A stretch of 64,000 nucleotides of DNA, from NCBI GenBank assembly GCA_964423445.1, contig CAYREQ010000003.1, positions 821-64,820 of the forward strand, read 5' to 3'. The notes beneath the pieces were generated by a model. It searched no databases and had not been told where the DNA came from. It saw only the letters and a program-made list of their open reading frames with translations. Both the position numbers and the translations under genes were made by a program. The stretch comes from an uncultured Candidatus Saccharibacteria bacterium. GTDB lineage: Bacteria > Patescibacteriota > Minisyncoccia > Phycocordibacterales > UBA9973. Of the stretch, positions 2,362-55,974 are shown in pieces; the stretch's first letter is position 1, and every line of letters starts with the position of its first letter.

Positions 2362-3003
2362 ATGTCAACAAAGCTAATATATTTCGTCAGACACGGTGAG
2401 ACCATTTTAAATGCCCAAAATATCAGGCAAGGAGCTGAAGGCGGGCTCACCGAGCTCGGGAAAACTCAAGCATTGGAGACTGCAAAAAGGTTTCCAAAAC
2501 ACAAAGGACACCCCGAAGTCATCATAACGAGCCCATACGAGCGTACCCGTGAGACAGCAGAAATAATAGCCAAAGAGCTAGGTATGAAAATAGAGTATTG
2601 TGATCTACTGGTAGAGCGTAGAAACCCATCAGAGATAATCGGCAAATGGGGTGAAGATCCAGAGGTAAAAAAAATTGTGGACCAGATGGACAAGAGCTTC
2701 CACGAAGACAATTTGCGAATTTCTGACGAAGAAAACTTTGTAGATTTAAAAGCTCGTGCCAAAAAATTATTGAAATATATCAAAAGAAGACGAGAACATA
2801 GAATAATCATGATTACCCATGGAATATTTTTGAAAATGGTAGTGTCATATATGATAGAGGGCGAAAAACTCACTGCTAGTGAATACAATAAATTGAGTGT
2901 CTACAACCCAGTAAACAATGCGAGTATGGCTATAGTCTCTTACACTGGACACTGGTTTAAAAAAGATGAGTGGAAAATACTAGTCTGGAACGACTTGGAC
3001 TAA
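2362..3003 (+). CDS. histidine phosphatase family protein (phosphoglycerate mutase-like)
   Basis: Has the RHGET motif near the N-terminus and is about 213 aa. Confidence 0.6.
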   Translation: MSTKLIYFVRHGETILNAQNIRQGAEGGLTELGKTQALETAKRFPKHKGHPEVIITSPYERTRETAEIIAKELGMKIEYCDLLVERRNPSEIIGKWGEDPEVKKIVDQMDKSFHEDNLRISDEENFVDLKARAKKLLKYIKRRREHRIIMITHGIFLKMVVSYMIEGEKLTASEYNKLSVYNPVNNASMAIVSYTGHWFKKDEWKILVWNDLD

Positions 3004-3719
3004 ATACCTGCGACTCCAAAAAGTTTTCCTATTCCAAAAGTTACCACCATAGCTAAAATTCCACCCAAGACTACTCGAAGGGTAGCTTTTCTCTTACTAG
3101 CTCCACCGACATATGCAGAGAGCGTGCCTGTGATTACAAGTGCAAAAAATACTGAGATAAATGTAGCGGTGATTTGCATAGATGCGGGAGCTACAAGTAT
3201 AGCGATGATAGGTATGATAGCTCCACAGAAAAATGCGAGAGCAGATGCATAAGCTGCGTGAAATGGATTTGTCAGGTCATTTGGATTTATATTTAATTCT
3301 GCGTCCACGTGTGCTGCAAAAGCATCTTTATCTGTGAGCTCACGAGCTACTACTTCGGCTGTTGTGCGAGAAAGGCCTTTACCTTGATAAATTACAGTCA
3401 GCTCTTCGAGCTCTTGCTCTGGCATATTTTCTATTTCCCAAAGTTCTTTTTTAAGTAAAGCTTTTTCTGTATCTCGTTGACTACTGACAGATACATATTC
3501 GCCGACAGCCATAGACAAAGCTCCAGCCACGAGTGCTGCTACACCCGCAGTCAATATAAAACTTTTATCATGAGATGCTCCAGCCACGCCCACGATGACA
3601 GCTGCCACCGATACAATACCATCATTGGCTCCGAGCACAGCAGCTCGGAGCCAATTTAGTTTGGAGTTTGTAGAAAAACTATTTAATTCTAAGTGTAAAA
3701 GCGGGTCACGAGAAGTCAT
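3000..3719 (-). CDS. VIT1/CCC1 family iron/manganese transporter
   Basis: Has LRAAVLGANDGIVSVAAVIVG and multiple TM helices characteristic of the VIT/CCC1 (DUF125) family. Confidence 0.65.
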   Translation of the reverse strand: MTSRDPLLHLELNSFSTNSKLNWLRAAVLGANDGIVSVAAVIVGVAGASHDKSFILTAGVAALVAGALSMAVGEYVSVSSQRDTEKALLKKELWEIENMPEQELEELTVIYQGKGLSRTTAEVVARELTDKDAFAAHVDAELNINPNDLTNPFHAAYASALAFFCGAIIPIIAILVAPASMQITATFISVFFALVITGTLSAYVGGASKRKATLRVVLGGILAMVVTFGIGKLFGVAGI

Positions 3720-3748
3720 GACTACATTATACCATTTTTTACCTCAAA

Positions 3749-4162
3749 TTACGCTGAGAGTATAAAGGCAGCCACCATCACAGCCACGAAAGCAAAGCCA
3801 GACATTATAAAGATTTGTTTTAGCCAATATTTCCTTTTAGTGTTTGCCCAGATTACAGCACCTACTTGTGTAGGCACTACAAAGCCAATCCAAATCCAAA
3901 AACCAACGTGATAAATACTAAATTCAGGCATATATGGTGCTAGGCCTGCTAGAGACACTGTCATAAAAAATGTCAGGAATAATTGCAGAGCATAAAAAGG
4001 CATCATTTCCTTTTGCATTTTCTTTAACTCTTCTTTTGATAAATGTGTGCATTCCATTATCTGCATCCATGTCTTACCGAAAAGAATCGGTGAATACCAG
4101 ATAGCTCCTAATACAAACTGCACTATACTAGCTATAAAAACCAATTTATAATTTATATCCAT
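3749..4162 (-). CDS. DUF1761-like membrane protein
   Basis: Hydrophobic 137-aa protein with a WYSPILFGKTWM segment resembling DUF1761. Confidence 0.4.
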   Translation of the reverse strand: MDINYKLVFIASIVQFVLGAIWYSPILFGKTWMQIMECTHLSKEELKKMQKEMMPFYALQLFLTFFMTVSLAGLAPYMPEFSIYHVGFWIWIGFVVPTQVGAVIWANTKRKYWLKQIFIMSGFAFVAVMVAAFILSA

Positions 4163-4204
4163 ATGTTTATTTTGTTACTTTTAATATACTAAAATAATAT
4201 CACT

Positions 4205-4726
4205 TTAGTTTATTTCAGCACAAGCCACATCTGTGAGTTGTAAATTGTATAGAATTTTACTTTGATCTTTGTATACGTAGACACCATCTCCCCTGTCTAC
4301 CATCTCCCCAAATCCGATACTAGCTGTGCCTTCACCAAATATAAATTTCAATTGCTCTTTTGTATTCATGCCCTCAGCTAGTGTGTCCCATGTGGCATCC
4401 ACTGTTCGTGCCATCATCACTTTATCTACTGCACTGACTGTACCTTCAAATTTTCCTATTTTTTTATCTTTCTCTGCTGGCAAGAGATTCAACTCTCCTA
4501 ACACTTTCCCCTCTTTATTGTCTATGAGCATTTTGAGTGTAAATTTATCAAAGAAACCCTGCTCATTTGTTTTTCCTTTTTGCATAAAGCAAAGCTCTAC
4601 GGGTTTTACCTCTTCTACTACTGGTGGAGTTACGACGACAGGAGAAGACATCTTTTTATTGTTTATTAAAAAGAAAGCTCCTATTACTAGTAATACCGCA
4701 AACACTACGATTAGTATTTTTTTCAT
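4205..4726 (-). CDS. membrane-anchored/secreted hypothetical protein
   Basis: N-terminal signal-anchor (MKKILIVVFAVLLVIGAFFL) and no recognisable catalytic motif. Confidence 0.4.
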   Translation of the reverse strand: MKKILIVVFAVLLVIGAFFLINNKKMSSPVVVTPPVVEEVKPVELCFMQKGKTNEQGFFDKFTLKMLIDNKEGKVLGELNLLPAEKDKKIGKFEGTVSAVDKVMMARTVDATWDTLAEGMNTKEQLKFIFGEGTASIGFGEMVDRGDGVYVYKDQSKILYNLQLTDVACAEIN

Positions 4727-4743
4727 GTATTTATTATATCACT

Positions 4744-5130
4744 CTATCTATATAGATGTGCTGTTCGTTTTAATTCAGCTCGGATGATTTTATGATTTGG
4801 CACTGTTTGTGCGACCAAATTCCAAAAATTTACTGAGTGGTTGAATTCTTTTAGATGGCAGAGCTCGTGCACGATAATATAATCCGCAATATGTGGAGGT
4901 AAAAACAATACTTTATAATTGAAATTCAAATTGCCCTGTTTGGAGCAGCTACCCCACCGAGATTTGGTATTTCGTATAGATACCCTACCCACCCGAAAAC
5001 CATATTGAGTATTAAGTGTAGCTATTTTTGTATGTACCAAAGCTCTAGCCTCTTCTTTATATTTTTTATAGTCCCACCTAGTGTATTTCTTTTTACCTAG
5101 AAAATTTAAAATCTGATTTACAATCATCAA
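4744..5130 (-). CDS. DUF45/YgjP-like zinc metallopeptidase (HExxH), paralog A
   Basis: Has the HELCHLKEFNH motif. It is about 80 percent identical to the 11218..11601 product and shares an identical >40-nt nucleotide core (aaatggcagagctcgtgcacgataatataatccgcaatatgtgg). Confidence 0.6.
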   Translation of the reverse strand: MMIVNQILNFLGKKKYTRWDYKKYKEEARALVHTKIATLNTQYGFRVGRVSIRNTKSRWGSCSKQGNLNFNYKVLFLPPHIADYIIVHELCHLKEFNHSVNFWNLVAQTVPNHKIIRAELKRTAHLYR

Positions 5131-5193
5131 AGAATTTTAGCACAAATGACTGAAAGTTAATTTGTGTTGTATCTACTTTTATTAAAAACTGCT

Positions 5194-5742
5194 TTAATCC
5201 AAGATATCCCACAGATGTAGAGTCAGAGCGGTGCGCTCGCCTTTGTGTGGTTCGGCCAATTTCAGCATGATTTTTTCTGTAGGTAGATTTTTCAATTTAA
5301 AAGCTTTTTGAAAACCTTTTCTAGTGCCTAGATCACCCACGGGCAATACATCCGGCCTATTCAATGCAAATATTAAAAACATGTCGGCTGTCCAAGGACC
5401 GATGCCTTTCACGGCGAGTAAGTGTTCTTTGACCTCGGCATCTGTCATCTTGTGAAAATTTTTATGATTGATAGTTTTATCCAAAAATTTCTCTGACAAA
5501 TCTTTGAGGTAGCCAGACTTTTGTGGAGATATGCCAGCAGATTTTAATTGTGCAATATTAAATTTTAAAAAAGCTTCAGGCGTCGGCTTTTTCTTTCCAA
5601 AGAGCGCTATAAATTTTGCATAGATAGCATTGCCTGCTTTAGTAGAAATCTGCTGATATATCATCGCTCGCGCCAAAGACAAAAAAGCATTCTTTGTCGG
5701 TGTAATCTTCCGTAATTTCTTTTTATTTATTTTGAGTTTCAT
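5194..5742 (-). CDS. HhH-GPD DNA glycosylase (AlkA-like 3-methyladenine DNA glycosylase II family)
   Basis: Has the VKGIGPWTADMFL helix-hairpin-helix Gly/Pro motif followed by a catalytic Asp region. Confidence 0.65.
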   Translation of the reverse strand: MKLKINKKKLRKITPTKNAFLSLARAMIYQQISTKAGNAIYAKFIALFGKKKPTPEAFLKFNIAQLKSAGISPQKSGYLKDLSEKFLDKTINHKNFHKMTDAEVKEHLLAVKGIGPWTADMFLIFALNRPDVLPVGDLGTRKGFQKAFKLKNLPTEKIMLKLAEPHKGERTALTLHLWDILD

Positions 5743-5766
5743 ATATATAATAAATATAAGTGATCT

Positions 5767-6108
5767 CTAACGGGACATAATTTCTATAGAAAAATTAAAT
5801 TCTTCGCCGTCGTAAAGATTTTCTTCAAAACGAACTTCTTTTTTTAGTGGTAAGACATATGTATTTGATCTCTTGTCTGGAAATATAGAAGTCTGCCACT
5901 CTGTCTTTTTTACTTTCGCTTTCACATACACAGCTCCCCACCCTCGGCGAAGATTCCCCTTTTGCATTTCCTTTATCTTTTCTGAAATTTTCTCTGGCAA
6001 ATAAGCAAACCTCCAAGCTCCTTTATCGTCCCCTTTTGCCCGAACGCCATTTTGCCAAACAATAACTTTGCTTTTAAATTTGAAGATGGTTTTAGATTTT
6101 TTTTGCAT
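5767..6108 (-). CDS. DUF1905 domain protein
   Basis: Segments WRFAYLPEKISEKI...RGWGAVYVKAKV...WQTSIFPDKRSNTYVLPLKKEVR match the DUF1905 signature. Start/stop spacing indicates translational coupling to the upstream ORF. Confidence 0.5.
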   Translation of the reverse strand: MQKKSKTIFKFKSKVIVWQNGVRAKGDDKGAWRFAYLPEKISEKIKEMQKGNLRRGWGAVYVKAKVKKTEWQTSIFPDKRSNTYVLPLKKEVRFEENLYDGEEFNFSIEIMSR

Positions 6109-6110
6109 AT

Positions 6111-6515
6111 CTATTTTAATATATAAATCGAAAGTATGTTTTTTAGATTAACGCTCAAAATTGGAAAAGAATACGCACCAGCAACTTTCCATGAGTGAGA
6201 ATTTTTAATTGTTGGAAGAATTTTTTTTAACACCTTGTCATGAGGGTATAAATACCAATTATCATTTTGCTTATCCTGAAAACAAATATATAGGTCTTTT
6301 TTAAGATATTTTCTTTCAAAAGTTGCTCTTCCTTTTAATTGAACTCGCAAAAATTCTTTACCATTAAAATTTAAAGCAATAAAATCTGCTCCCATCCAGT
6401 CATCAGAAAGCTTAATGGTTGTGTATCCGTAATCAGCAAAGATAGCCGTTACCTTTTGGAAATTATAAATCTCTTTCTGTCTTGCGTTAAGTTTGTTATA
6501 TGAGATTTTTTTCAT
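6111..6515 (-). CDS. hypothetical protein with possible PD-(D/E)xK-like motif
   Basis: 134 aa. The ADFIALNF...EFLRVQLKG segment resembles a D...(E/Q)xK nuclease motif. It overlaps the upstream 571-aa ORF by 4 nt. Confidence 0.35.
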   Translation of the reverse strand: MKKISYNKLNARQKEIYNFQKVTAIFADYGYTTIKLSDDWMGADFIALNFNGKEFLRVQLKGRATFERKYLKKDLYICFQDKQNDNWYLYPHDKVLKKILPTIKNSHSWKVAGAYSFPILSVNLKNILSIYILK

Positions 6516-8227
6516 TTTTTAACATAGTATGTTTTTTCTAGTTTTACATTTCCTTCTTTATATTGAAAAATATCTAGGTCTCCACCGATCCATACCTTCC
6601 ATTTTTTCATATCTGGAGATATTGTAACAAAAAAATTTATTTTCTCTATAGGTAAACCTTTTAAATTACTTTTTTCGCCTGGAATCCAGAAACTAACACT
6701 TAATAATATTGGTAAATTATTATTCTCTGGTGAAGTTTTTTCTACTAATTTACTCAGGGCATTTTTAAAATCATTATCTAAGCTATAAGCTTGTAGCTTA
6801 TCTATGTCTGCAGATACTTTTCTTTGGTTGTATGCACCCTTACTCTCGGTTAAATCAAGATATTTATTCGGGTAAAAAGCTACGACATCAATATATTTTC
6901 TCTGTTGACTTCTTCCTGTGCCTGCTTGAGGTAGGATCGCACGATCACCCTGAGCACCTGGGTAACTTATAGATATTATTTTAAAACCATTTTTTTTCAA
7001 AACTTGATGAGATACAATGTAAGTTACATCATCCTCTTCTATAAAATTTCTTTCTGCTATTTTTGTTGCACTTAAATTACCTTTTTTGTTTAAAAAATCG
7101 AAGTTAATTTTCCAGCTCAAAATAATTCTATCATTACCTTTTTTATCTTGTATGATAAATTTTTCAGAATTACAAAATATTGCAAATAATTGCTTATTAA
7201 GCGTGTTAAAATTTTCTAGAACAAACCCTGTGATGTCTATATAATTCGAAATAAGTTTAGATGATTTTAGGTATTTATTATCCTCCAAGTATTGATTGAA
7301 ATTCCCAATCTTGTCTAGGTTTGTTCCTTTTATAAAAGCCTTCAAAAAATCATAATTACTCTTTAATTTATTTAATTTAAAAACTTTATCTCCAGTGGAG
7401 GGGAAAATTATTTTCGATATTATTTTTTTATTGTATCTATATTTATAATACCAAATCATTCCTCGCTCGGGGTCCATGCCGTGCCCCATACGATTAAATT
7501 TAAAATAAAGAGATTTTTCTTCATTTATCCATTTCAGCCTTGAGCTATTGAATTTTTCACTATTATCTTCTAACTCAATCTTGGATATTTTTTCTATCCA
7601 ATATTTCAAATTTAAATCTTTCTTTAATATAGGTAAAACATTCCTAGCTAAACTTTCTTTTTTTATTTTTTCAAAATTATCTTCAGTATATTTTATTGTT
7701 TTAGTTAATAGTGATGAAAATTCTTTTATATTAGGTGGACAGGAAAAATATTCTTTATCTCTCTTTACATAATTTGAAGATTCAAGAGGCCACTCAAGGT
7801 GAAATGAAGGTACCCCGAATTTTTTATAAATAAGAGCATAGGGCTCAATTATATTAAAATTTGTATTTCCTCCATGCTTACTATTTGAAAGCTTTAAGGG
7901 TGAAATCTTTATGTAAAAACACTCGCCTGCAACAGCGCCAATATAACCATCGAACCTTTGAAGTTCATGGTCTTCTGTTATTACTGCTTCTGAAAACTCA
8001 ATTACAAATAAGGGTATCTCTTCTTCGTCTTTTACAAATGAAATTAGAATGTCTGGATTTTTAAATTTTAAAATTTTTGAAACCCTTGAACCTTCAATAT
8101 ATCCAACACTCTTTGATAAATACACTAATTTAATGTGGAGGTGTGGAAAAGTCTTACTTATTATTGGGCGAACATAGTGATTGGCTTGTTCGTATGATTC
8201 ATAATATATCCTGATTTCTTGATTCAT
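6512..8227 (-). CDS. candidate Type II(S) restriction endonuclease
   Basis: 571-aa Lys/Asn-rich protein immediately downstream of two DNA MTases. It has no Walker A motif. The C-terminal segment IDVVAFYPNKYLDLTESK fits a PD-x(n)-ExK nuclease motif. Confidence 0.45.
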   Translation of the reverse strand: MNQEIRIYYESYEQANHYVRPIISKTFPHLHIKLVYLSKSVGYIEGSRVSKILKFKNPDILISFVKDEEEIPLFVIEFSEAVITEDHELQRFDGYIGAVAGECFYIKISPLKLSNSKHGGNTNFNIIEPYALIYKKFGVPSFHLEWPLESSNYVKRDKEYFSCPPNIKEFSSLLTKTIKYTEDNFEKIKKESLARNVLPILKKDLNLKYWIEKISKIELEDNSEKFNSSRLKWINEEKSLYFKFNRMGHGMDPERGMIWYYKYRYNKKIISKIIFPSTGDKVFKLNKLKSNYDFLKAFIKGTNLDKIGNFNQYLEDNKYLKSSKLISNYIDITGFVLENFNTLNKQLFAIFCNSEKFIIQDKKGNDRIILSWKINFDFLNKKGNLSATKIAERNFIEEDDVTYIVSHQVLKKNGFKIISISYPGAQGDRAILPQAGTGRSQQRKYIDVVAFYPNKYLDLTESKGAYNQRKVSADIDKLQAYSLDNDFKNALSKLVEKTSPENNNLPILLSVSFWIPGEKSNLKGLPIEKINFFVTISPDMKKWKVWIGGDLDIFQYKEGNVKLEKTYYVKK

Positions 8228-8231
8228 GACA

Positions 8232-9353
8232 TTATTTTTCTAAAAATATTAAATGCTCTTCTTTTTTAATAAGTGATGAAAAACTTGGATTAAACATCCT
8301 AGAATGCTTCGACATTGGCGCACTGGCTATGTCCATAAATTTTAGACCAACTTCTTTTGAAATTTTTTTCATAATTTTATTCATTTTAATTAGCTTTTTA
8401 TCTATAACTGAATCTCCAATAATTATAAAAATTTTTCCGCCCTTTTTTATTATTCTCTTTATTTCTATTAAACACTTTTTTATGTCTTGTTCCCATTTTT
8501 GTGGATCTTCTTTCAAAGAAGAAAACTCGTGCCTTGATCCTATCTCGTTTAATTGTGCATATTTCACATCCATGTCTAGCCAATGTTTTCTGTGTTTATG
8601 GTAAAGATAATAATCATAGGTATTAGCATATGGGGGAGAAGTGATTATTAAATCAACCGAGTTTTTATTTAGCTTACTTAGATCTCTACTGTCTGCTTGA
8701 AAAACCTTTAGTTTAACCTTTGAATCTTTGGTTTTTTGAAAAAAATCTAAGTAAATACTTTTTATTTCTATTGATTTTTGAATAAAAATTCTAATTGTTT
8801 CTAGATCTTTTATATCCTTATTTATTGCAACATATCTAGTATTACTGTCTTGATTTGAAACTCTAACTAAAATTGAAGAAAAAATTATAAAAAATAAATC
8901 TTTTAATTCTTGTTCTTTCAATTTTAAAATCTCTAACTTTATAAAAGACAGCTCTTTAATTACATTACCTTGAAACCAGTGATCTATATTTTCATAATGA
9001 AAATTTTTAATATTTTTTGACTTTTTATATTTAATTGGCAATTCCTCGCAAAATCTATCTATTTTATTTAACAAATTTGGCGACAAGGGCTTTGCTTTAA
9101 CTTGTGATAAAAGACAAGAAAGAGGATTTATATCACTACCAAAAGAAGAGTGCCCCAGAAGAGTTGCTTCTAGTAAAGTGGTGCCAGACCCGACAAACGG
9201 GTCAAAAACTATATCTCCCTTTTTACCGAATTTTTGAATTATTTTCCTAGGAATAAATGCTGGAAACTTACAAGGAAACGCATGAAAATTATGTAGAGAA
9301 TGATTTCCTTCTTTTTTTGTATTATTAAATATATCTTTTAATTCTTTACTCAT
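8232..9353 (-). CDS. DNA methyltransferase (N4-cytosine/N6-adenine, SPPY motif)
   Basis: Has an AdoMet motif I (DIVFDPFVGSGTT) and a catalytic motif IV (ITSPPYANTYDY). Its start overlaps the stop of the upstream MTase. Confidence 0.7.
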   Translation of the reverse strand: MSKELKDIFNNTKKEGNHSLHNFHAFPCKFPAFIPRKIIQKFGKKGDIVFDPFVGSGTTLLEATLLGHSSFGSDINPLSCLLSQVKAKPLSPNLLNKIDRFCEELPIKYKKSKNIKNFHYENIDHWFQGNVIKELSFIKLEILKLKEQELKDLFFIIFSSILVRVSNQDSNTRYVAINKDIKDLETIRIFIQKSIEIKSIYLDFFQKTKDSKVKLKVFQADSRDLSKLNKNSVDLIITSPPYANTYDYYLYHKHRKHWLDMDVKYAQLNEIGSRHEFSSLKEDPQKWEQDIKKCLIEIKRIIKKGGKIFIIIGDSVIDKKLIKMNKIMKKISKEVGLKFMDIASAPMSKHSRMFNPSFSSLIKKEEHLIFLEK

Positions 9354-10225
9354 TACAAAGGCTTTCTAAAAACTACAATAAAAGAACAATTCTGGTTGCT
9401 GTAAAAAACACTTGGGTAACCTAGAAGCACTAAACTTCTCTGGGCATTTTGATTCCATACAATCAAATCTTGATAAAGCCATCCTGCTTCTTTACCTACA
9501 TTTGCCAAATCAGAATGAAAATCAATATATGGAATCTTGTTTTTTGTGTCTCTATAATCTTTTACTACCCACACGCTATACCCACCCTTTTTTGTTATTA
9601 TTAAATTGTCTTCTAGAATTGATTTAATTTCCTTAAGAAAACTTCTGTAATCCAGATTGCCAAAATCCTCTAACTTTTTACTATACTGTTTAACGGTTGA
9701 GTTATTAGCATATTTAATAAGTGAAGTTTTGTGGGTATTTTTTCTATCCTTTAAAGATCTTTGAATAAAGTTAGCGTATGGAGGAGAAGTAAAAGTGAGC
9801 TGCACTGAATCTTTTTTTAAATATTTTTTCATATTACGACAATCATCATTGTAGATTTTATGAAAAATTTTATTTTTCAATTGACTAAAAAGATTTTTCT
9901 TTTCTTTATTTAAGACACTTTTAGCAATTTCATAAAATCTTTCATTTAATTCTATTCCTACTCCTGATCGCTTTTGCATACAAGCACTAGTAACCGTTGT
10001 TCCAACACCAACAAAAGGATCAAAAATTAAATCCCCTTCTTTTGAATACATTTTTATTACTCTGTCTGCAAGTGCAATTGGATAAGTTGCTCCATGTTCT
10101 CGGTGGTAAGACTCTCTTTGAGAGCTTACATCATCCCAAACATTCCTACTCAATAAAGTCCATTCTCTAGGACTTAAACCATTAAAAGATCGTTCTTGTT
10201 TTTTATTTATATCTTTTTTATTCAT
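9353..10225 (-). CDS. DNA methyltransferase (N4-cytosine/N6-adenine, SPPY motif)
   Basis: Has HGATYPIALADRVI...LIFDPFVGVGTT (motif I region) and FTSPPYANF (motif IV). Confidence 0.7.
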   Translation of the reverse strand: MNKKDINKKQERSFNGLSPREWTLLSRNVWDDVSSQRESYHREHGATYPIALADRVIKMYSKEGDLIFDPFVGVGTTVTSACMQKRSGVGIELNERFYEIAKSVLNKEKKNLFSQLKNKIFHKIYNDDCRNMKKYLKKDSVQLTFTSPPYANFIQRSLKDRKNTHKTSLIKYANNSTVKQYSKKLEDFGNLDYRSFLKEIKSILEDNLIITKKGGYSVWVVKDYRDTKNKIPYIDFHSDLANVGKEAGWLYQDLIVWNQNAQRSLVLLGYPSVFYSNQNCSFIVVFRKPL

Positions 10226-10315
10226 AATTTTATATAGAAAATATCAGGCTAAAAACTTCAAAAAGTATAGCATTTTAATGCCAATATTTAAAGCATTATA
10301 TTTATATGATTGTTC

Positions 10316-10531
10316 CTACACTAACTTTTTGAGTTCGGCTTCGTATTTTTTCATGACTAGCATGCCGGCGTCGGTCTGGCTCATGCCAGACTTTACCTTT
10401 TCTTGCACTTCTTCAGCAATCTTTTTGAAAAGCTCTGGATTTTTCTCCATCATAGCCACAAACATATCTATCTGTGCCTCCGGCACACCTTTGGCCTTCA
10501 GCATCTTTTTAAGTAAAAAATTTTGAAACAT
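10316..10531 (-). CDS. small helical hypothetical protein
   Basis: 71 aa, charged, predicted alpha-helical, with no known motif. Confidence 0.3.
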   Translation of the reverse strand: MFQNFLLKKMLKAKGVPEAQIDMFVAMMEKNPELFKKIAEEVQEKVKSGMSQTDAGMLVMKKYEAELKKLV

Positions 10532-10605
10532 AGTCCAATGATTATATCACCCCAAACAATTCTCCACAAATCCACCCCAAAGCTACTTTACTCAGCTAAA
10601 GTACT

Positions 10606-11163
10606 TTAGTTGAATAAAGTAGCTTTGTATTTTGAAAATAAAATCTTGCCCCAGACGAGTAGCAAGAGCACATAGTTTGTAATCATGAACCATTGATTGC
10701 TCCACTGGATACCATATGCAAATTTGTAATCAGATAAAGGGAAGAGAAATGGTGTCGGGAAAAATGCTATCACATGCGTCGGAATATCTATGAGTATGTG
10801 CAGAGCCCAACCAAAGAGCTCATAGCGAGGACGCTTGAAAATAACCCACACCACCAAAAACACAAAAGCCCATATCACGAGCGAGTGGCTGTAATTGTAT
10901 AGATTGAGCGCGAGATCAAAACCATTTTGATATTCTCCTTCCACCATCGCTGGCTTTCCAAAGAAAGAAGCTCCACCTGTGCCGGACAAAACATAATAGA
11001 AACGAAGTATAAAAGGAATAGTAAAAGCAAATAAATCTGGAAACACTCCCCAAAATCCTGTCCACATTGGATTAATGTGAAATTTATTATTTTCTTTTTC
11101 AGCTAAAGCATTTGCTCCCCTAGCGCCAGCATTTGCCCAAAGTGTATGTGCGAGTATATCCAT
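10606..11163 (-). CDS. membrane protein, possible DUF457-type membrane-bound metal-dependent hydrolase
   Basis: MDILAHTLWA N-terminus and multiple TM helices; assignment by resemblance only. Confidence 0.35.
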   Translation of the reverse strand: MDILAHTLWANAGARGANALAEKENNKFHINPMWTGFWGVFPDLFAFTIPFILRFYYVLSGTGGASFFGKPAMVEGEYQNGFDLALNLYNYSHSLVIWAFVFLVVWVIFKRPRYELFGWALHILIDIPTHVIAFFPTPFLFPLSDYKFAYGIQWSNQWFMITNYVLLLLVWGKILFSKYKATLFN

Positions 11164-11217
11164 TTATTTTTATATTATTATTTATAAATTTTTTTCGTAG
11201 ATTACATTATAACCTTT

Positions 11218-11601
11218 TTAGCGATACAAGTGTGCTGTACGCCTTAGCTCAGCTCGAATATTTTTATGGTCTGGCACGACCCTAGCCACCAAATTCCAGA
11301 AATTTACCGAATGATTAAATTCTTTCAAATGGCAGAGCTCGTGCACGATAATATAATCCGCAATATGTGGTGGTAAAAATAAAACTTTATAATTAAAATT
11401 CAAATTGCCACTCTTTGAACAGCTACCCCAGCGAGATTTTGTGTCTCGGATAGATACCCTGCCCACAGAAAAACCATAATATTTATTTAGCTCATGTATC
11501 TTTTGGTGTACCAAAGCTCGGGCATTTTCTTTTTCTCTTTTATAGTCCCACCTAGTATATTTTTTCCGGGTGAATAATTTTAAAATTGAATTCGCTCGCA
11601 T
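11218..11601 (-). CDS. DUF45/YgjP-like zinc metallopeptidase (HExxH), paralog B
   Basis: Has HELCHLKEFNH and is near-identical to the 4744..5130 product. Confidence 0.6.
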   Translation of the reverse strand: MRANSILKLFTRKKYTRWDYKREKENARALVHQKIHELNKYYGFSVGRVSIRDTKSRWGSCSKSGNLNFNYKVLFLPPHIADYIIVHELCHLKEFNHSVNFWNLVARVVPDHKNIRAELRRTAHLYR

Positions 11602-11638
11602 AGGAGAATCTTAACATACAAACAAATACAAGTGAGAA

Positions 11639-11671
11639 ACCGCCTGTGGGACGCGGAGTCCCACAGGCGGT
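11639..11671 (-). terminator. GC-rich intrinsic terminator hairpin
   Basis: ccgcctgtgggac-gcgga-gtcccacaggcgg is a 13-bp perfect stem, followed on the minus strand by GUUUCUCACUUGUAUUUGUUUG. It lies immediately after the stop of 11671..12048. Confidence 0.6.
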
Positions 11672-12048
11672 CATGATGATACTCGATAATTAGGGGTTAT
11701 CATTACGGTCCCCCTTTCATCTTCAAGGCCGGCGATTTGACGACAGATAAGCTTGTTCGTCTTCCAAAGATGAGCCCATTTTTCGGTAAACTTCTTATGA
11801 AGCTCCTGTTTATAGCTATCTTTGAAAATTGCCCAATGATTCTCATCTTTGGGGGTTAGTGTGTACCGGATGACTTCCATGTGTTTTTCGTCGAAGCTTT
11901 CTAGGTCGACAAGCTTTTTGTATCCGACGAAAAAACAATTGGTTTCTTGGAGTGCGGAAAGATATTCTTTTTCTACCCACTCCTGAAAAGGGGCACTATC
12001 ACCAGAAGCGACAGCAAACGTTAAGGCAAATATAAATGTACCGTTCAT
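11671..12048 (-). CDS. secreted hypothetical protein
   Basis: Has an N-terminal signal peptide (MNGTFIFALTFAVASG) and no known domain. Confidence 0.4.
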   Translation of the reverse strand: MNGTFIFALTFAVASGDSAPFQEWVEKEYLSALQETNCFFVGYKKLVDLESFDEKHMEVIRYTLTPKDENHWAIFKDSYKQELHKKFTEKWAHLWKTNKLICRQIAGLEDERGTVMITPNYRVSS

Positions 12049-12176
12049 AACATCTCCTCGTGACCTTGGTCACATATTTAAAAAAATAGGAACTAAAACT
12101 ATCTTCGTTATACCACATAAACACAAAAAAGCTACTTTAGTATACTAAAGTAGGTCTGTGAAAATATATATAAAAA

Positions 12177-12398
12177 TTAATCTTCTACCACCACCAACTT
12201 GCTCGGGTGGTGATGCCCGTTTACTATACGGACTTTTTTTACCGAGACTTTAAAATGCTCGGCTACTAGCTCTACTACCCTAGTATTTGCCCTATTCATC
12301 TCAGCTTTTTCTTTTACGGAAATTTCAAAATGATCCGTGGATTTTTCTTTCCAAATTTCTTTTTTCGCTCCTGCGGTGACTTTGACATGAATATACAT
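12177..12398 (-). CDS. DUF167 (YggU-like) protein
   Basis: HVKVTAGAKKEIW...ISVKEKAEMNRANTRVVELVAEHFKV pattern typical of DUF167/UPF0235. Confidence 0.5.
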   Translation of the reverse strand: MYIHVKVTAGAKKEIWKEKSTDHFEISVKEKAEMNRANTRVVELVAEHFKVSVKKVRIVNGHHHPSKLVVVED

Positions 12399-12400
12399 CT

Positions 12401-12889
12401 CTATTTTAGATAACTATCAAAATAAATAGCATGGCAAGTATAACCACCTGGATTTTTTTGTAAATAATCCTGATGATAATCCTCGGCTAAATAAAATTTT
12501 CCTAGTGGCTCGAGTGTAGTCACTACAGGATTAGGCCAGCGTCCAGATTTATTTACTATATCTATAAAATTTTCTGCCTCAGCCTTTTCTTCTTCATTTC
12601 CATAGAAAATAGCCGAGCGATAAGATGTGCCTATATCATTTCCCTGCCTATTTAGAGTAGTCGGATTGTGAATTTGAAAAAAGAAATCTAGCAACTTTTT
12701 ATAAGAAGTTTTTTCATCGTCATATTCTATCTCCACTGCTTCAGCGTGGCCTTCGTGATTTTGATAAGTCGGGTTTTCTACACTGCCCCCTGTATAGCCG
12801 ACTTTTGTATCTATTACACCTTCTTGTTTACGGATAAGCTCCTCCAAACCCCAAAAACATCCCCCAGCCAATACTATTTTTTTAGTCAT
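12401..12889 (-). CDS. msrA: peptide methionine sulfoxide reductase MsrA
   Basis: Has the GCFWG active-site motif and HQDYL near the C-terminus. Confidence 0.8.
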
Positions 12890-12915
12890 ATAATGATTAT
12901 ATCTTAATTAATAAT

Positions 12916-13980
12916 TTACTTTTTTTCACATTCTTTTTTCAAAGCCTCCATATCAGCCGAAGTAAGAGTCATATTTTCACTTTGATTTAATTCATACATT
13001 ATAGCTTTTGGATCAGACACATGCTCCAAGCCTAGTGAATGCCCGAGCTCATGAGCCAGCACTCGTACCAATTTTGTCCTATCACTAAATTCATATATAT
13101 CTATCTCGCTTTTAAGCCCATCACTCACATATAATCCTTCTTCAAAAGTTTCTCCGCGGGAGACATTTACAGTATTGTATTTATCTACTGATAAATTTAG
13201 AGTATTGATGAGACGATTCAAGACTACGACGAGAGCATTTATCTCATCAGCTTTTTCATTTAAATTATTTTGTAAAACTTTTATTTGATTTGATTCTTTG
13301 TCCAAGGAGGATTGAGTAGCTACTAATTTTTCATATTCTCCTTCGGGTGCTCCTCCCCTCTTGTTCCAATAGTCTACATCTCGCTCGTAGGCACTTTGTT
13401 TTTGATTAAAAGATTCTACTTTTCTATTAAAACTTATCTTTTCTTGCTCATACTCAGACTCGAGAGAGTCTAATTTTATTTTGAGTGATTCATATGAAGC
13501 TCTGGTATTTTCTACGGCAATTCCTAGATTTGAAAGTTTTTTTGTGGCTTGCTGTCTGTAGTCATAGACTAGATTGATCTTCAAAGTATCGGTAGCGGTA
13601 TCAAATTCTTTATATTCAAATAATTCTTTGCCATATGGTTTTTCCCAGATTTTCTCAGCCTCAGCGAGAGCACTCAAAAAATATTCTTGTGAGATTCCAA
13701 ATTTGTTATCAAAATTACCAATATTGTATGGTATCGGCTCTACGCAAGGATTCAAGCTAGAGCTCAAATGTAAAAATTTTCTTATTTGATCTATTTGTGG
13801 CCGAAATTGTCTATTTAATTCAAAACGAAAATGAAAAGCTACAGCAAAAATACCCACTATCAATATTGTCTGCAAAAGCTTTTTCATATTTTCTATTATA
13901 CTAGATAAAATGAGAAAATCCGCCACCACGAATCTCCTCGTTGGTTGCGGATTGTATTTTTTATCATTGCTGGTGGGCAA
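12916..13980 (-). CDS. membrane-anchored zinc metalloprotease (matrixin/M10-like) with coiled-coil region
   Basis: Has HELGHSLGLEH (HExxHxxGxxH) with a downstream Met-turn (AIMY), plus an N-terminal TM helix and long heptad-like segments. Confidence 0.6.
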   Translation of the reverse strand: MPTSNDKKYNPQPTRRFVVADFLILSSIIENMKKLLQTILIVGIFAVAFHFRFELNRQFRPQIDQIRKFLHLSSSLNPCVEPIPYNIGNFDNKFGISQEYFLSALAEAEKIWEKPYGKELFEYKEFDTATDTLKINLVYDYRQQATKKLSNLGIAVENTRASYESLKIKLDSLESEYEQEKISFNRKVESFNQKQSAYERDVDYWNKRGGAPEGEYEKLVATQSSLDKESNQIKVLQNNLNEKADEINALVVVLNRLINTLNLSVDKYNTVNVSRGETFEEGLYVSDGLKSEIDIYEFSDRTKLVRVLAHELGHSLGLEHVSDPKAIMYELNQSENMTLTSADMEALKKECEKK

Positions 13981-13988
13981 TGATTGTT

Positions 13989-14177
13989 TTATTTTGATTT
14001 TTTTTCTTTTCCTACCTCCTTTTCAGCGTAGTAGATGATCTCAATGAGCGTCCCTTCCACGACGTGAGGTGGGTTGCTTATTTTGAAATCATCAGGTGCT
14101 ATGTCACCCTCATTTAGAAAAGCCACAAGAGCGTCATTGTTCGCGAATGACGCTGTAAACCATTTTTTCATGAACAT
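13989..14177 (-). CDS. small hypothetical protein
   Basis: 62 aa with no motif. Confidence 0.3.
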   Translation of the reverse strand: MFMKKWFTASFANNDALVAFLNEGDIAPDDFKISNPPHVVEGTLIEIIYYAEKEVGKEKKSK

Positions 14178-14244
14178 ATGTTCAAAATCCCTCCGTGTTG
14201 TTTATAACACAATTTTAGAAAAAATCAAGATATTATAGAAAATT

Positions 14245-15228
14245 TTATTTTTGAGTGAGAGTGTATCTATCCAAGATAGCTTCAAACATAAGTGGAGCTA
14301 CGATAGTGGCGTCGGACTCTATCACAAACATAGGGGTCTCTGCGGTGAGCTTGTCCCAAGTAATTTTTTCATTTGGTGTAGCTCCTGAGTATGAACCATA
14401 AGAAGTAGTGGAGTCTGAAATCTGGCAGAAATATCCCCAAGGGCGGACTTCTTTTTTCAAATCATATTTTATAGATGGCACTACGCAGATTGGAAAATCT
14501 CCTGAAATTCCTCCACCAATTTGGAAAAATCCGAGCCCTGGACCGTCTTTTGCGAGCTCTTGGTATGAATCATAAAGTGACATCATATATTCTACCCCTG
14601 TCTTCATGACTGTAGGGCTCACTTCCCCTGCCTTACAATAACCAGCGAAAATATTTCCTAGTGTAGAGTCTTCCCAACCTGGGACGACTATTGGTAAATT
14701 TTTCTTTGCAGCTTCGAGTAGCCAGCAGTGCTCTGGGTTTCCTTCGTATTTACCTTTTAATTCATCAGATAAAAGTATCTGGTAAAAATATTCGTGTGGA
14801 AAATAACGCTCACCTTTTTCTTGTGCTTCACGCCACTTTTTTAAAATGATTGGCTCTACTACACGAAAAGCTTCTTCTTCGGGTATAGATGTATCTGTGA
14901 CTCGTCTCTCACCGCGCTCGAGTATCGCCACATCATCTTCTTTTGTAAAATATCTGTAGTCTGGGTAATCTTTGTAGCTATTGTGCGCTACTAATCTAAA
15001 TACTGATTCCTCCAAGTTTGCACCGGTGCAAGAAATGGCATGAATCTTGTTTTCTTTTATCATGGCAGCCAACGTCACACCCATTTGTGCCGAACTCATA
15101 GCTCCACCCATGGCTAGCATCATCTTGCCTCCATCGTCTAGGTGTTTTTTAAAAGCGATAGTAGCATCCTTCATCGCTCGAGAATTAAAATTATGGAATA
15201 AAGTTTTAAATAAATCTAATATATTCAT
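14245..15228 (-). CDS. deoxyhypusine synthase family protein (DHS/homospermidine synthase-like)
   Basis: ISCTGANLEE and QIGGGISGDFP segments resemble the DHS VTTAGGVEED and GGG nucleotide-binding regions; about 327 aa. Confidence 0.5.
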   Translation of the reverse strand: MNILDLFKTLFHNFNSRAMKDATIAFKKHLDDGGKMMLAMGGAMSSAQMGVTLAAMIKENKIHAISCTGANLEESVFRLVAHNSYKDYPDYRYFTKEDDVAILERGERRVTDTSIPEEEAFRVVEPIILKKWREAQEKGERYFPHEYFYQILLSDELKGKYEGNPEHCWLLEAAKKNLPIVVPGWEDSTLGNIFAGYCKAGEVSPTVMKTGVEYMMSLYDSYQELAKDGPGLGFFQIGGGISGDFPICVVPSIKYDLKKEVRPWGYFCQISDSTTSYGSYSGATPNEKITWDKLTAETPMFVIESDATIVAPLMFEAILDRYTLTQK

Positions 15229-19592: not shown

Positions 19593-20744
19593 ATGCAACA
19601 AACTAGAAAAATAATATATTTCGCCGGTTTTCTTTTTTCTCTTTCTCTGGCATTGATGATATATACAAACTCTAGCTTCCTATCTTCTTTTATGAACAAG
19701 GAGCTAGTGGGGCTGACTTTTGCTCTGGGTTCAATCTTTTCAATATTGGCCCTCATAATAGCACCAAATATATTTAGGAAAATAGGTGGACATAAATTTT
19801 TACTTCTAGTAATAGCCCTAGATGCACTATCCATACTATTGTGCACCTTAACAGATCATCCGTGGGTAGTGTCTATCGCATTTATATTTGGTTTTGCATT
19901 AAACACCTTGATAGTCTTTTCTCTGGATGAGCTTTTAAAGATATTTTCAAAAGATTCTGCCATAGGTAGTGTACGAGGTGCGTACCTAGCTATCTGCCAT
20001 ATAGCTTTTATACTGTCTCAATTGATATCTGGTACAATCTTGGAGTATTTTTCTTTTAAAGAGATTTACGGTGTAGCTTTTTTTGTAATGGTTTTATTTT
20101 TTATTTTTGCCTTTTTCGCTCTCAGGGAAACTCCTGACCCAAAATATGATGATTTGAAAGTTTTGCAATATTTGAAAAAGTTTTTCACAAATAAAAACTT
20201 ATTTCGGGCATATGGTATAAATTTTTTACTTCAATTCTTTTACTGCTGGATGGTGATATACACACCAATTTACTTATATAATTACGTACATTTTTCTTGG
20301 GAAGAAATAGGTATTATTTTTTCTGTCATGTTACTACCTTTTATCTTGGTCCCCTTCCATGTCGGCAGATATGGAGACAAGGTGGGCGAAAGACTGATGC
20401 TGATGTCTGGTTTTACCATTATTGCACTTGCTACAATTTCAATATTCTTTATAAACGATCACAAAGTCTGGCTATGGGCTTTGATATTATTTGCTACCAG
20501 AGTCGGAGCTGCCACTATCGAAGTCATGAGTGATGCTTATTTCTTTAAACATATAAAACCTGAAAATGAAGAATATGTAGGTATTTTTCGTAGCATTACA
20601 CCGTTATCCTATATAATTGGTCCTGTCGCTGCTTCAGCATTTTTCCTATTTTTACCTCAGTTTAATTTTATCTATGTAATACTAGGCACTATAATGCTAT
20701 TTGGAATTTATCTTTCTTCTACTATAGACAGAAAAGATATTTAG
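19593..20744 (+). CDS. MFS transporter
   Basis: About 12 TM helices and 383 aa, with an MFS-like GRYGDK loop. Confidence 0.6.
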   Translation: MQQTRKIIYFAGFLFSLSLALMIYTNSSFLSSFMNKELVGLTFALGSIFSILALIIAPNIFRKIGGHKFLLLVIALDALSILLCTLTDHPWVVSIAFIFGFALNTLIVFSLDELLKIFSKDSAIGSVRGAYLAICHIAFILSQLISGTILEYFSFKEIYGVAFFVMVLFFIFAFFALRETPDPKYDDLKVLQYLKKFFTNKNLFRAYGINFLLQFFYCWMVIYTPIYLYNYVHFSWEEIGIIFSVMLLPFILVPFHVGRYGDKVGERLMLMSGFTIIALATISIFFINDHKVWLWALILFATRVGAATIEVMSDAYFFKHIKPENEEYVGIFRSITPLSYIIGPVAASAFFLFLPQFNFIYVILGTIMLFGIYLSSTIDRKDI

Positions 20745-21190
20745 TTTTTCTTAAGTAAACTATTTTTATAAATTTTTTCTTTATAAGGTTTTAAGCGGAC
20801 TATTTTTACCAATAGTCCACGTTCTTTCAAATCCTTCTTGAGATTTTTTACATAAGCTTTTTGATCATAACCAAGAGCAATAATATCTGGTCGCTCTTTT
20901 AGGATATGCGGTATATGATTTTCTACGCCCGAGAGTACTACCCTATCGGCTAAAATACATTCTTTGAGTAGGCCCATCCTTTCTTTTTCATTTAATTTTG
21001 GATATTGTCCTTTTATTCTAAAAACATTTTTGTCGCGAGCTATTGATACCACTAGAAAAGAATTTTTTGCTAATCTTCGGGCTTGTTTAAACAAATTTAA
21101 ATGCCCCTCATGTAGACCGTCAAAGGTGCCAAAAACCATTATTTTATGCTTTTTTTCTATATTATTCTTTTCCACAATGTGTTTTGACAT
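20741..21190 (-). CDS. nucleotidyltransferase (archaeal RibL-like FAD synthetase / cytidylyltransferase family)
   Basis: Has the GTFDGLHEGH (HxGH) motif; the 149-aa architecture resembles RibL/TagD-type nucleotidyltransferases. Confidence 0.55.
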   Translation of the reverse strand: MSKHIVEKNNIEKKHKIMVFGTFDGLHEGHLNLFKQARRLAKNSFLVVSIARDKNVFRIKGQYPKLNEKERMGLLKECILADRVVLSGVENHIPHILKERPDIIALGYDQKAYVKNLKKDLKERGLLVKIVRLKPYKEKIYKNSLLKKN

Positions 21191-21235
21191 AACTTGAAGT
21201 AAGTATATACTAAGTAGGTTCCTTTTAAAAATTAA

Positions 21236-21415
21236 AGATTTGATTGGGGAAACTGGTTAGAATCCAGTACAGTGCCGCTACGGTATGTCCCGATTTGCTA
21301 AATGGCGAATCGAGGAACAAGTCCGAATACCAATCATTTTGTTATTTTATTAGTCCCGAGCAGGAAACCTTCTTTTTAAAAGAAGCTTCAATTCTGCACG
21401 AGCAGAATTTTTTTA
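21236..21415 (+). ncRNA. cobalamin (B12) riboswitch with terminator expression platform
   Basis: GGGGAAACTGGTTAGAATCCAGTACAGTGCCGCTACGGT matches the conserved GGGAA..GGTnnnAATCC....CnGnnCCGCnACnGT core (B12-box-like GCCGCTACGG). It is followed by the ttctgcacgagcagaa hairpin and a T7 run directly before the ATG at 21419. Confidence 0.6.
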
Positions 21416-21418
21416 TTT

Positions 21419-21907
21419 ATGCCCAAAAAACAAAAAATTACAACGATACTGACTGTCATAGCAATTATATTATTTTTGGCTGGTTCTTATTCTTTCTTAT
21501 CAAAAAAAACTGTAAATAATATATCTTCAATAATAGGAGAAACAATAGAAACTGAGAAAGAAAATCCTGAAAAACTAATAAACAATGATAGTAAAAATTT
21601 AGTAACCCAAAAAACTACTCAGGCTTACCTAGAAATAGAAAATGTGCGATACACGAGTAACATCGCACAAAATACCAGTGTCTACGACTTTATGAATAAA
21701 ATGAGAGTTGAGAAAAAAATAAACTTTAAAGACAAGACTTATACTGGCATGGGTAAATTTATCTATGAGATAAATGACGTAAAAAATATCGGAAGTAAAA
21801 ATTGGATTTATTATGTAAATGGCGAAAAAGCACAGGTGGGAGTTTCAGATTATAAAATAAATCCGAGCGATGTCGTGTCTTGGAAATTTGAAGATAATAT
21901 AAATTAA
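21419..21907 (+). CDS. DUF4430 domain protein (transcobalamin-like beta-domain, putative B12-binding), membrane-anchored
   Basis: The C-terminal NWIYYVNGEKAQVGVSDYKINPSDVVSWKFED matches the DUF4430 signature, and an N-terminal TM helix is present. It lies directly downstream of the B12 riboswitch. Confidence 0.55.
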   Translation: MPKKQKITTILTVIAIILFLAGSYSFLSKKTVNNISSIIGETIETEKENPEKLINNDSKNLVTQKTTQAYLEIENVRYTSNIAQNTSVYDFMNKMRVEKKINFKDKTYTGMGKFIYEINDVKNIGSKNWIYYVNGEKAQVGVSDYKINPSDVVSWKFEDNIN

Positions 21908-48912: not shown

Positions 48913-49416
48913 TTAATACGGATTTTCTCGTAATTTTAATTTGAAAGCAATAAAACAAGCAAACGGATGAAGGACAAAATTTATAAAAATACTAAGAATA
49001 AAAAAAGTAAATGAAATGTAGCCGAACAAAAGAAATACCACACCTGTGAGTATCATATAATCTCCATGATCTACGACAGGAAGAAATTCTCCATCTTTTT
49101 TGTGCATCCTTCTTTTTATAATACTTCCTAGTGTGTGCCCTATATATACTAAGATTGGAATACTAGCCCACACAAAACTCTCTGTGATAAAAAATAAAAA
49201 TATACTAAAAGTAAAAGAAAGTATAATACCCACGACTGTAGTAGATTCCCCTACCAGTCTATCTTTACCGTATTTTAGACCACCATCTATGGGTTTATCA
49301 AAATTTTTTGTTTTTGGAAAATATCTTTTAATAACATACAAAAAATTTAAAAGAATATTTGATACCCAAACAATAAAAAAATATATTAAAAAATTATTAA
49401 TAGTTTGAGCTATCAT
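48913..49416 (-). CDS. polytopic membrane protein, possible CTP-dependent cytidylyltransferase (CdsA/CarS-like, DUF46)
   Basis: The SIIKRRMHKKDGEFLPVVDHGDY segment loosely resembles the CdsA/CarS C-terminal catalytic motif. Confidence 0.3.
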   Translation of the reverse strand: MIAQTINNFLIYFFIVWVSNILLNFLYVIKRYFPKTKNFDKPIDGGLKYGKDRLVGESTTVVGIILSFTFSIFLFFITESFVWASIPILVYIGHTLGSIIKRRMHKKDGEFLPVVDHGDYMILTGVVFLLFGYISFTFFILSIFINFVLHPFACFIAFKLKLRENPY

Positions 49417-55529: not shown

Positions 55530-55949
55530 TTATAATTGTACCTTATTTTCTAAACTAGGCATAATATTTTTTAAATAATATAAAATAGCGACCAATCCCC
55601 CAGATAAATCAAAGAATATATCAGAAACAGAGTCTAATCTATTGGCAACAAACAAATTTTTAACAAAATAGCTGTTTGCAGAGAATTCAAACACCTCCCA
55701 AGAGATTCCTATAAGAAAAACACCCAGCATAATTTTTAAAATAGAGCCTGAAACCTTACCATTTAGTAGATTTTTATAAGATAAAATTAAAATGAGAAAA
55801 AGGCCAGACCAAAACCCACCTAAAAAGTGCATAGGCATATCAAAATACCAAATAGAGTAATACCAATAGAATTTTGTAGCTAAAATCTGTGCAGAGAAAA
55901 GTAAAATAATAAGTGCAATTAAGATTTTTACAAGCTTTCTGGTGTTCAT
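55530..55949 (-). CDS. VanZ-like membrane protein
   Basis: Four TM helices with conserved D/H/G positions (FDMPMHFLGGFW...SDIFFDLSGG). The ATG at 55949 is preferred over the TTG at 55964. Confidence 0.4.
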   Translation of the reverse strand: MNTRKLVKILIALIILLFSAQILATKFYWYYSIWYFDMPMHFLGGFWSGLFLILILSYKNLLNGKVSGSILKIMLGVFLIGISWEVFEFSANSYFVKNLFVANRLDSVSDIFFDLSGGLVAILYYLKNIMPSLENKVQL

Positions 55950-55974
55950 TTTGATATTATACAATATTAAAAAA

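Follow-up and report, generated by a model that had tools for sequence, protein, structure and literature searches.

The window analysed here is a 64,000-nucleotide (nt) stretch of contig CAYREQ010000003.1 (positions 821 to 64,820; assembly GCA_964423445.1) from an uncultured Candidatus Saccharibacteria bacterium, and coordinates given without another sequence name are positions within it. It contains two copies of a short gene of the DUF45 (YgjP-like) metallopeptidase family, here called copy A and copy B, which enclose a small group of genes that includes a restriction-modification system. The initial annotation regarded this arrangement as a candidate defence cassette, mobile or variable, with the signature of insertion or excision through recombination between the DUF45 genes. 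What stands of that description is that a horizontally acquired Type II cassette lies between the copies and that the region varies between relatives; the role given to the DUF45 pair does not, since the pair appears neither to delimit nor to mobilise the cassette. Every gene in the stretch 3000-15228 lies on the minus strand, and the features of the interval are as follows, protein lengths being given in amino acids (aa).

4744-5130, minus strand: DUF45 copy A, a minimal HExxH metallopeptidase of 127/128 aa, YgjP-like, PF01863
4855-4896, minus strand: 42-nt stretch of copy A shared exactly with copy B, covering the PPHIADYIIVHELCH / HExxH region
5194-5742, minus strand: HhH-GPD DNA glycosylase (PF00730, E 1.5e-16; GC 0.379)
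5767-6108, minus strand: DUF1905 protein (PF08922; GC normal)
6111-6515, minus strand: 134-aa small PD-(D/E)XK nuclease with a Hjc / I-Ssp6803I-like fold
6130-10315, minus strand: low-GC island, horizontally acquired, comprising the restriction-modification cassette and the small nuclease gene, delimited by GC and by the borders of homology with the related locus L173
6512-8227, minus strand: 571-aa Type II restriction endonuclease homolog (PADLOC REase_II model PDLC03439, E 4e-42)
8232-9353, minus strand: 373-aa DNA methyltransferase of the N6/N4 type (PF01555; PADLOC MTase_II, E 1e-54)
9353-10225, minus strand: 290-aa DNA methyltransferase of the N6/N4 type, first gene of the cassette (PF01555; PADLOC MTase_II, E 3.5e-43)
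10316-10531, minus strand: 71-aa conserved small protein that accompanies YdjM (79% identical in L173)
10578-10627, no strand: palindrome of 25+25 nt, terminator-like, overlapping the YdjM stop codon (from the repeat search)
10606-11163, minus strand: YdjM-like membrane protein (PF04307, 26.1 bits, under the cutoff of 29; GC 0.396)
11218-11601, minus strand: DUF45 copy B, a diverged paralog of copy A with an intact open reading frame (ORF)
11329-11370, minus strand: the 42-nt stretch in copy B, identical to 4855-4896

The gene content reported by the initial annotation is sound, both in the two same-orientation HExxH paralogs of about 80% identity and in the two PF01555 methylases, the REase_II match, the HhH-GPD glycosylase, the DUF1905 protein and the YdjM-like membrane protein between them. 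Copies A and B are 81% identical in protein sequence (BLASTP E 4e-79) and form the sole high-identity paralog pair within the 64-kb window. Both match PF01863 well above its cutoff of 26 bits (copy A, E 2e-36, 126.4 bits; copy B, E 7.5e-36, 124.5 bits), although the match covers profile positions 106-206 of 207, that is, the C-terminal half alone, so that the N-terminal half of the full-length domain is absent from the Pfam match of either 127-aa protein. Both copies have the motif HELCH, which does not vary among their relatives, with a Glu further downstream (HELCHLKEFNH). We take the YgjP-like or DUF45 family to be PF01863 and COG1451, the family that NCBI names 'M48 family metallopeptidase', and relatives of the two copies bear that same annotation. 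The nearest solved structures are the minigluzincins proabylysin (4jiu, E 2.4e-4) and projannalysin (4jix, E 0.012), to which phmmer gives weak similarity; the likeness, judged from sequence alone, is one of size (105-127 aa) and of a soluble, minimal HExxH scaffold. The window belongs to a Patescibacteria genome: homologs of the short DUF45 protein number more than 5800 (E below 1e-20), with the best matches in metagenome-assembled genomes of Candidatus Nomurabacteria and Paceibacteria, while the exact protein of copy A, with either start codon, has no database record.

At the nucleotide level the two copies have diverged considerably. Alignment of the genes with their flanks, which had been proposed as a means of defining the ends of a repeat, gave 76% DNA identity over 384 nt (a repeat search scored the pair as 281 nt at 82%), and the similarity ends with the coding sequence, beyond which the flanks do not align. 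Nei-Gojobori estimates of synonymous (dS) and nonsynonymous (dN) divergence between copy A and copy B are 1.41 and 0.143 (dN/dS 0.10), from which it follows that both copies are intact, old and under purifying selection. For comparison, dS is 1.18 between copy A and its ortholog in L169, a related contig of assembly GCA_020049755.1, and 0.24 between copy B and its only close relative, P0137 from L172 of assembly GCA_009612855.1. Orthologs of copy A are numerous (P0121-P0135, 80-88% identity); the relative of copy B is 95% identical in protein, and the next nearest sequence to copy B is copy A itself. Over all 504 nt of the L172 sequence, which take in the flanks of the gene, DNA identity to the window is 94.8%, and therefore the junction between copy B and YdjM is stable in a second population. 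In a neighbour-joining tree, copy B and P0137 group together with 100% bootstrap support, outside the clade that contains copy A, P0121 and P0122.

The identical core of more than 40 nt noted earlier is exact over 42 nt; the 44-mer that was quoted is found exactly in copy B only and has one mismatch in copy A. Its run of 14 identical codons is not significantly long (permutation p = 0.07, with 67% of synonymous-capable codons identical), and the same stretch is near-identical in the orthologs from L169 and L172. The core would appear to reflect conservation, and recent recombination is unnecessary to account for it; gene conversion, which we considered as its origin, is likewise unnecessary on these grounds.

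Base composition sets a narrower limit on what is foreign in this interval. GC is 0.284 in the island at 6130-10315, 0.367 in the remaining 1.9 kb between the copies and 0.357 in the rest of the window, and the value for the island lies beneath all 488 windows of the same size elsewhere (minimum 0.325). Measured gene by gene as GC, GC at third codon positions (GC3) and Lys+Asn+Ile content, only the four genes at 6111-10225 are AT-rich and Lys/Asn-rich (GC 0.27-0.30, z -1.8 to -2.8); the genes for HhH-GPD, DUF1905, YdjM and both DUF45 proteins have average or higher GC and GC3. The AT- and Lys/Asn-richness formerly attributed to the whole interval thus holds for those four genes and not for the HhH-GPD, DUF1905 and YdjM genes, and because it is limited to them the compositional island measures about 4.2 kb rather than about 6 kb. 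Foreign composition over the entire segment between the DUF45 genes was not found, the low-GC segment stopping about 1 kb inside each copy. Homology with L173 reaches precisely as far as the 71-aa gene's stop codon (10316) and begins again a short way upstream of where DUF1905 starts (approximately 6110-6130), and these limits coincide with the GC borders of the island. The segment 6130-10315 is a self-contained, horizontally acquired Type II cassette situated between a resident 71-aa gene and a resident DUF1905 gene.

Other genes of low GC (0.27-0.31) occur in the window at 48913-50752, 55530-55964 and 20741-21907; they include genes for a CarS-like membrane protein, a DUF4430 protein and a cytidylyltransferase-like protein, as well as ORFs of 451 and 144 aa without a family match.

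Methyltransferase genes with an adjoining restriction endonuclease gene, which are characteristic of a Type II system, are present in the cassette, where the endonuclease gene begins 4 nt past the stop codon of the preceding methylase. The 571-aa endonuclease has no sequence match in Pfam, NCBIfam or PDB; its 325 homologs are distributed across Candidate Phyla Radiation (CPR) bacteria, archaea and Bacteroidetes, and none of them is named. The order methylase (290 aa), methylase (373 aa), endonuclease (571 aa) recurs in L165/L166, L167 and L168 at 61-82% protein identity (77-82% for the 290-aa methylase). These are three independent contexts, in each of which the cassette lies between unrelated housekeeping genes and has lower GC than its flanks (0.28 vs 0.37, 0.31 vs 0.375 and 0.33 vs 0.39, respectively), and no DUF45, HhH-GPD, DUF1905 or YdjM gene is found near it in any of them. 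The trio moves independently of DUF45, and its low GC and occurrence in unrelated contexts are as expected of selfish restriction-modification cassettes.

Since there are two methylases and one large endonuclease, general knowledge of such systems suggests that the recognition site may be asymmetric, of Type IIS/IIA; each methylase would protect one strand of the site, leaving the endonuclease to cut incoming DNA that lacks the modification. Systems of the AlwI, MlyI and BspD6I type resemble the cassette in having two methylase genes and one endonuclease of approximately 570 aa, co-oriented and tightly packed, but the endonuclease in the window matches the PADLOC REase_II model alone.

The fourth AT-rich gene, encoding the 134-aa protein, overlaps the end of the endonuclease gene by 4 nt. 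Pfam and NCBIfam models do not match it and a PDB sequence search gave nothing useful, yet we are confident that it adopts the PD-(D/E)XK fold of Hjc and I-Ssp6803I: the restriction-endonuclease-like fold and the conserved Asp ... (Asp/Glu/Gln)-x-Lys are both present. It differs from archaeal Hjc and the homing endonuclease I-Ssp6803I in being only 13-16% identical to them in sequence and in having Gln, instead of the usual acidic residue, before x-Lys. The family comprises 718 representative proteins, with fusions to ankyrin repeats or an Nmad3 domain occurring among them. A plasmid search, made beside the searches with the endonuclease and the 134-aa ORF, returned a single match, a 29%-identical hypothetical protein in Helicobacter. 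An additional small nuclease recalls the heterodimeric Type IIS enzymes that have a small second subunit; however, this gene is missing from the other occurrences of the cassette (L165-L168), and so the protein is probably not an obligatory subunit of the restriction-modification system.

The remaining genes between the copies belong to the locus. Two relatives, L169 and L173, each have a single DUF45 gene within the sequence available, the L169 contig being short upstream, and their gene orders may be set beside that of the window.

Window: M10, MsrA, DUF167, DUF4286, DUF45 copy B, YdjM, 71 aa, (restriction-modification island), DUF1905, HhH-GPD, DUF45 copy A, lipoprotein gene, DUF1761, VIT1, His_Phos
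L169: S49 peptidase, HhH-GPD, 188 aa, DUF45 (88% to copy A), SOUL, DUF2177, rhodanese, VIT1, His_Phos, and further genes
L173: M10 peptidase, DUF167, (low-GC block: 794 aa, Zeta toxin, two small ORFs), DUF1905, GIY-YIG, DUF45 (single), TspO, 169 aa, DUF1761, YdjM, 71 aa, Dam methylase, DUF1761, VIT1, DUF5679, His_Phos, and further genes

Neighbouring genes in L169 are 89-97% identical to those of the window, and synteny is kept with HhH-GPD upstream and VIT1 downstream of DUF45; the HhH-GPD gene upstream of its single DUF45 is a 90%-identical ortholog. The window and L173 have outer anchors in common, namely M10 peptidase and DUF167 upstream and DUF1761 and VIT1 downstream, but the blocks DUF1905-x-DUF45 and YdjM-71 aa are in swapped order. 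DUF1905 orthologs of 70-79% identity adjoin DUF45 in L003/L086 and L173. The YdjM-like protein, with 1549 homologs at E below 1e-10, is widely conserved in Patescibacteria, and in L173 the 71-aa gene, which has no family match, stands directly after YdjM and is followed by a Dam-type methylase. Because they are present beside a single DUF45 gene in L169 and L173, the HhH-GPD, DUF1905, YdjM and 71-aa genes are residents and not cargo. Comparison with related genomes had been proposed to show whether the cargo is present or absent where there is a single DUF45 gene. We found no empty site; L169 and L173 retain cargo genes beside their one copy. A conserved block of a 71-aa gene followed by DUF1905 was also considered and rejected, since the 71-aa gene upstream in L173 is not homologous to that of the window.

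Several further observations concern these resident genes. The palindrome at the YdjM stop codon is one of two related hairpins (10578-10627 and 12113-12152; core AAAGCTACTTTA ... TAAAGTAGCTTT), located at the 3' ends of the YdjM and DUF167 genes; both are terminator-like, and there are none elsewhere in the window. The two DUF1761 genes of L173 (L173:7106-7522 and 9201-9617), which are 30% and 66% identical to the one in the window, bracket YdjM, the 71-aa gene and Dam, and likewise point to segmental duplication in this part of the genome. Finally, the first 1345 nt of the ENA contig L001 agree fully with the window; at window position 10490, inside the 71-aa gene, the contig departs from it into a tail of 108 nt (L001:1346-1453) with roughly 50% GC by eye, and coverage of the contig is about 2x. 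We considered it as a variant lacking the restriction-modification cassette, but given that tail and coverage it is probably a chimeric contig end, the alternative being that strains differ at this border of the island.

In L169, DUF45 itself has been disturbed. A 65-nt remnant of a DUF45 3' end (L169:3467-3531; compare window 4717-4780), comprising 12 codons and the stop (AEPKRKAHLYK, then stop), lies 1.2 kb downstream of the intact DUF45 gene, behind an insert of the SOUL and DUF2177 genes, and retains the original downstream intergenic DNA. Up to nt 340 the identity between copy A and the L169 gene is 0.91, and beyond that point it is 0.64, a pattern characteristic of inserted DNA that entered the 3' end of DUF45 and supplied a replacement for the gene end.

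Elsewhere the association of short DUF45 genes with restriction-modification loci is slight. DUF45 genes have been linked with Type I restriction-modification systems in defence-island surveys, a link that the initial annotation took up and for which the literature we searched, on DUF45, COG1451 and YgjP in connection with defence or restriction-modification, holds no confirmation and nothing else of relevance. In the short subfamily the association is weak: about 160 other Patescibacteria loci have one DUF45 gene each within the available flank (up to 10 kb on each side), and a Pfam tally of their neighbours (118 upstream, 139 downstream) gave approximately 130 families on each side, none of them dominant. 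Type I HsdR-like domains account for 3 of the 118 upstream neighbours and HamA for 2 of the 139 downstream, beside superoxide dismutase (5) and cupredoxin (4); no HsdR is among the downstream families listed for relatives, and no Type I hsdR, hsdM or hsdS gene lies in the interval in the window.

The explanation we favour, and think probable, is that an old pair of DUF45 paralogs arose by segmental duplication or rearrangement and that the restriction-modification cassette was inserted separately, the pair neither bounding nor mobilising it. The two copies would be independently maintained paralogs in a rearrangement-prone stretch between conserved anchors. Their most economical origin would be a tandem duplication of a block holding both DUF1905-x-DUF45 and YdjM-71 aa, with subsequent loss of one copy of each duplicated gene except DUF45; the swapped block order relative to L173 would then result from this proposed duplication and loss, which yields exactly the order seen in the window. 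That copy B is nearest to copy A in protein sequence would fit a local duplication.

Certain observations weigh against this explanation. The short intergenic spacers contain no pseudogene remnants of the lost copies, and no relative with an intermediate arrangement was found. The nearness of copy B to copy A in protein (81%) is in mild conflict with the basal position of copy B in the tree, although a long branch might account for that position. The L169 contig ends before the position at which a B-like gene would be expected, and L169 may therefore have a second copy. Restriction-modification or methylase genes adjoin the DUF45 ortholog in L170/L171, L024 and L173 (in the last, Dam lies about 2 kb downstream), so a looser, hotspot-like association with DUF45 is possible; and the restriction-modification function of the cassette is itself a prediction from sequence.

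The main alternative to duplication and loss is that copy B, alone or with YdjM and the 71-aa gene, was acquired horizontally from a related, unsampled lineage of Patescibacteria, in which case it could have entered by homology-facilitated illegitimate recombination and not by local duplication. We regard this as improbable. It would account for the rarity of the B lineage, which P0137/L172 alone resembles, and for the branching of copy B outside the clade of copy A and more than 15 orthologs, and the one-sided junction inside DUF45 in L169 is compatible with such a mechanism; but copy B, YdjM and the 71-aa gene are host-like in GC and GC3, no sampled lineage is nearer to copy B than copy A is, and YdjM and the 71-aa gene need not be imports, because the same anchors enclose both in L173.

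Very much less credible is the original proposal, in which a mobile or variable 6.5-kb defence cassette is inserted or excised through homologous recombination between the DUF45 genes as direct repeats. The locus does resemble direct-repeat genomic islands to the extent that same-orientation repeats of approximately 380 nt, with a 42-nt identical core, flank a segment containing a restriction-modification system, and the L169 remnant behind its two-gene insert indicates that DUF45 has been a junction at least once. It differs from them in that the repeats are old (dS 1.4), limited to coding sequence and 76% identical, without near-identity beyond the genes or att-like sites, the longest identical run being the 42 nt; in that the foreign composition, confined to the inner 4.2 kb, falls short of the repeats; and in that the cargo is present in relatives with one repeat. 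No integrase, recombinase or transposase family was matched in the eight long ORFs between the copies, in the 71-aa ORF or in the flanking genes scanned. Nor do the copies show the 5'/3' mosaic that a crossover would leave: segment-wise identity to L002, L169, L172, L173 and L170 gave no swap pattern in either copy, whether of host 5' with donor 3' sequence or the reverse, and no chimeric B/A protein is found among the 40 closest of 5815 homologs. With the trio travelling without DUF45 as well, the proposal is largely refuted, and the pair is no practical substrate for recombination.

An assembly artefact, such as a join of two strains or species through a k-mer they have in common, has next to no probability as the source of the duplication. 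The assembly graph is ambiguous at the shared 42-mer, since three short-read contigs (L082, L083 and L084) all break exactly there, and L001 has its tail of foreign composition. But those three contigs end exactly 30 nt (k-1) into the 42-mer, as expected of de Bruijn unitigs; the independent Logan contig L082 runs, at 100% identity to the window, from the 3' end of copy B as far as the 5' part of copy A; both outer flanks match anchor genes that are found on single contigs in L173; and the copies differ by 24% in DNA, far beyond strain variants.

A separate idea, which we consider unlikely, is that the highly conserved short DUF45 gene and the adjacent DUF1905 junction are recurrent recombination anchors, or hotspots, for foreign cassettes in Nomurabacteria-like Patescibacteria. 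Toxin genes, small metabolic genes and restriction-modification systems are the candidate cassettes, and the hints come from few cases. Apart from the duplicated DUF45 in the window and the insertion in L169, a Type IIS-like (AlwI-type) system, consisting of a 662-aa D12-class methylase and a 602-aa RE_AlwI endonuclease, stands immediately upstream of a single DUF45 gene (83% to copy A) in L170:6092-9909 and L171:3461-7278. In L173, a different low-GC block (L173:1559-5096; GC 0.30-0.33 vs 0.39 for the locus), which encodes the 794-aa protein, the Zeta-toxin/AAA_33 protein and the two small ORFs, abuts the same junction upstream of DUF1905 as does the island in the window, and this junction may be an insertion hotspot. 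A tblastn scan of 170 loci with each locus's own DUF45 protein, which is insensitive to remnants of approximately 12 codons, gave only noise-level matches. If the hotspot idea is true, it would offer a handle on the exchange of defence genes in genomes with few mobile-element genes in this region.

Taken as a whole this is an ordinary feature, with little significance beyond annotation. For the interpretation of similar loci, direct gene repeats around a defence system are insufficient grounds for calling a mobile cassette; the age of the repeats, the borders of composition and the arrangement in relatives must agree. For the families involved, a Hjc-like fold is identified in a family of small proteins (718 members) for which Pfam and NCBIfam gave no matching model, and the methylase-methylase-endonuclease family, which is widespread in CPR bacteria and archaea and still recorded as 'hypothetical', receives its first functional label, as a predicted Type II restriction-modification system.

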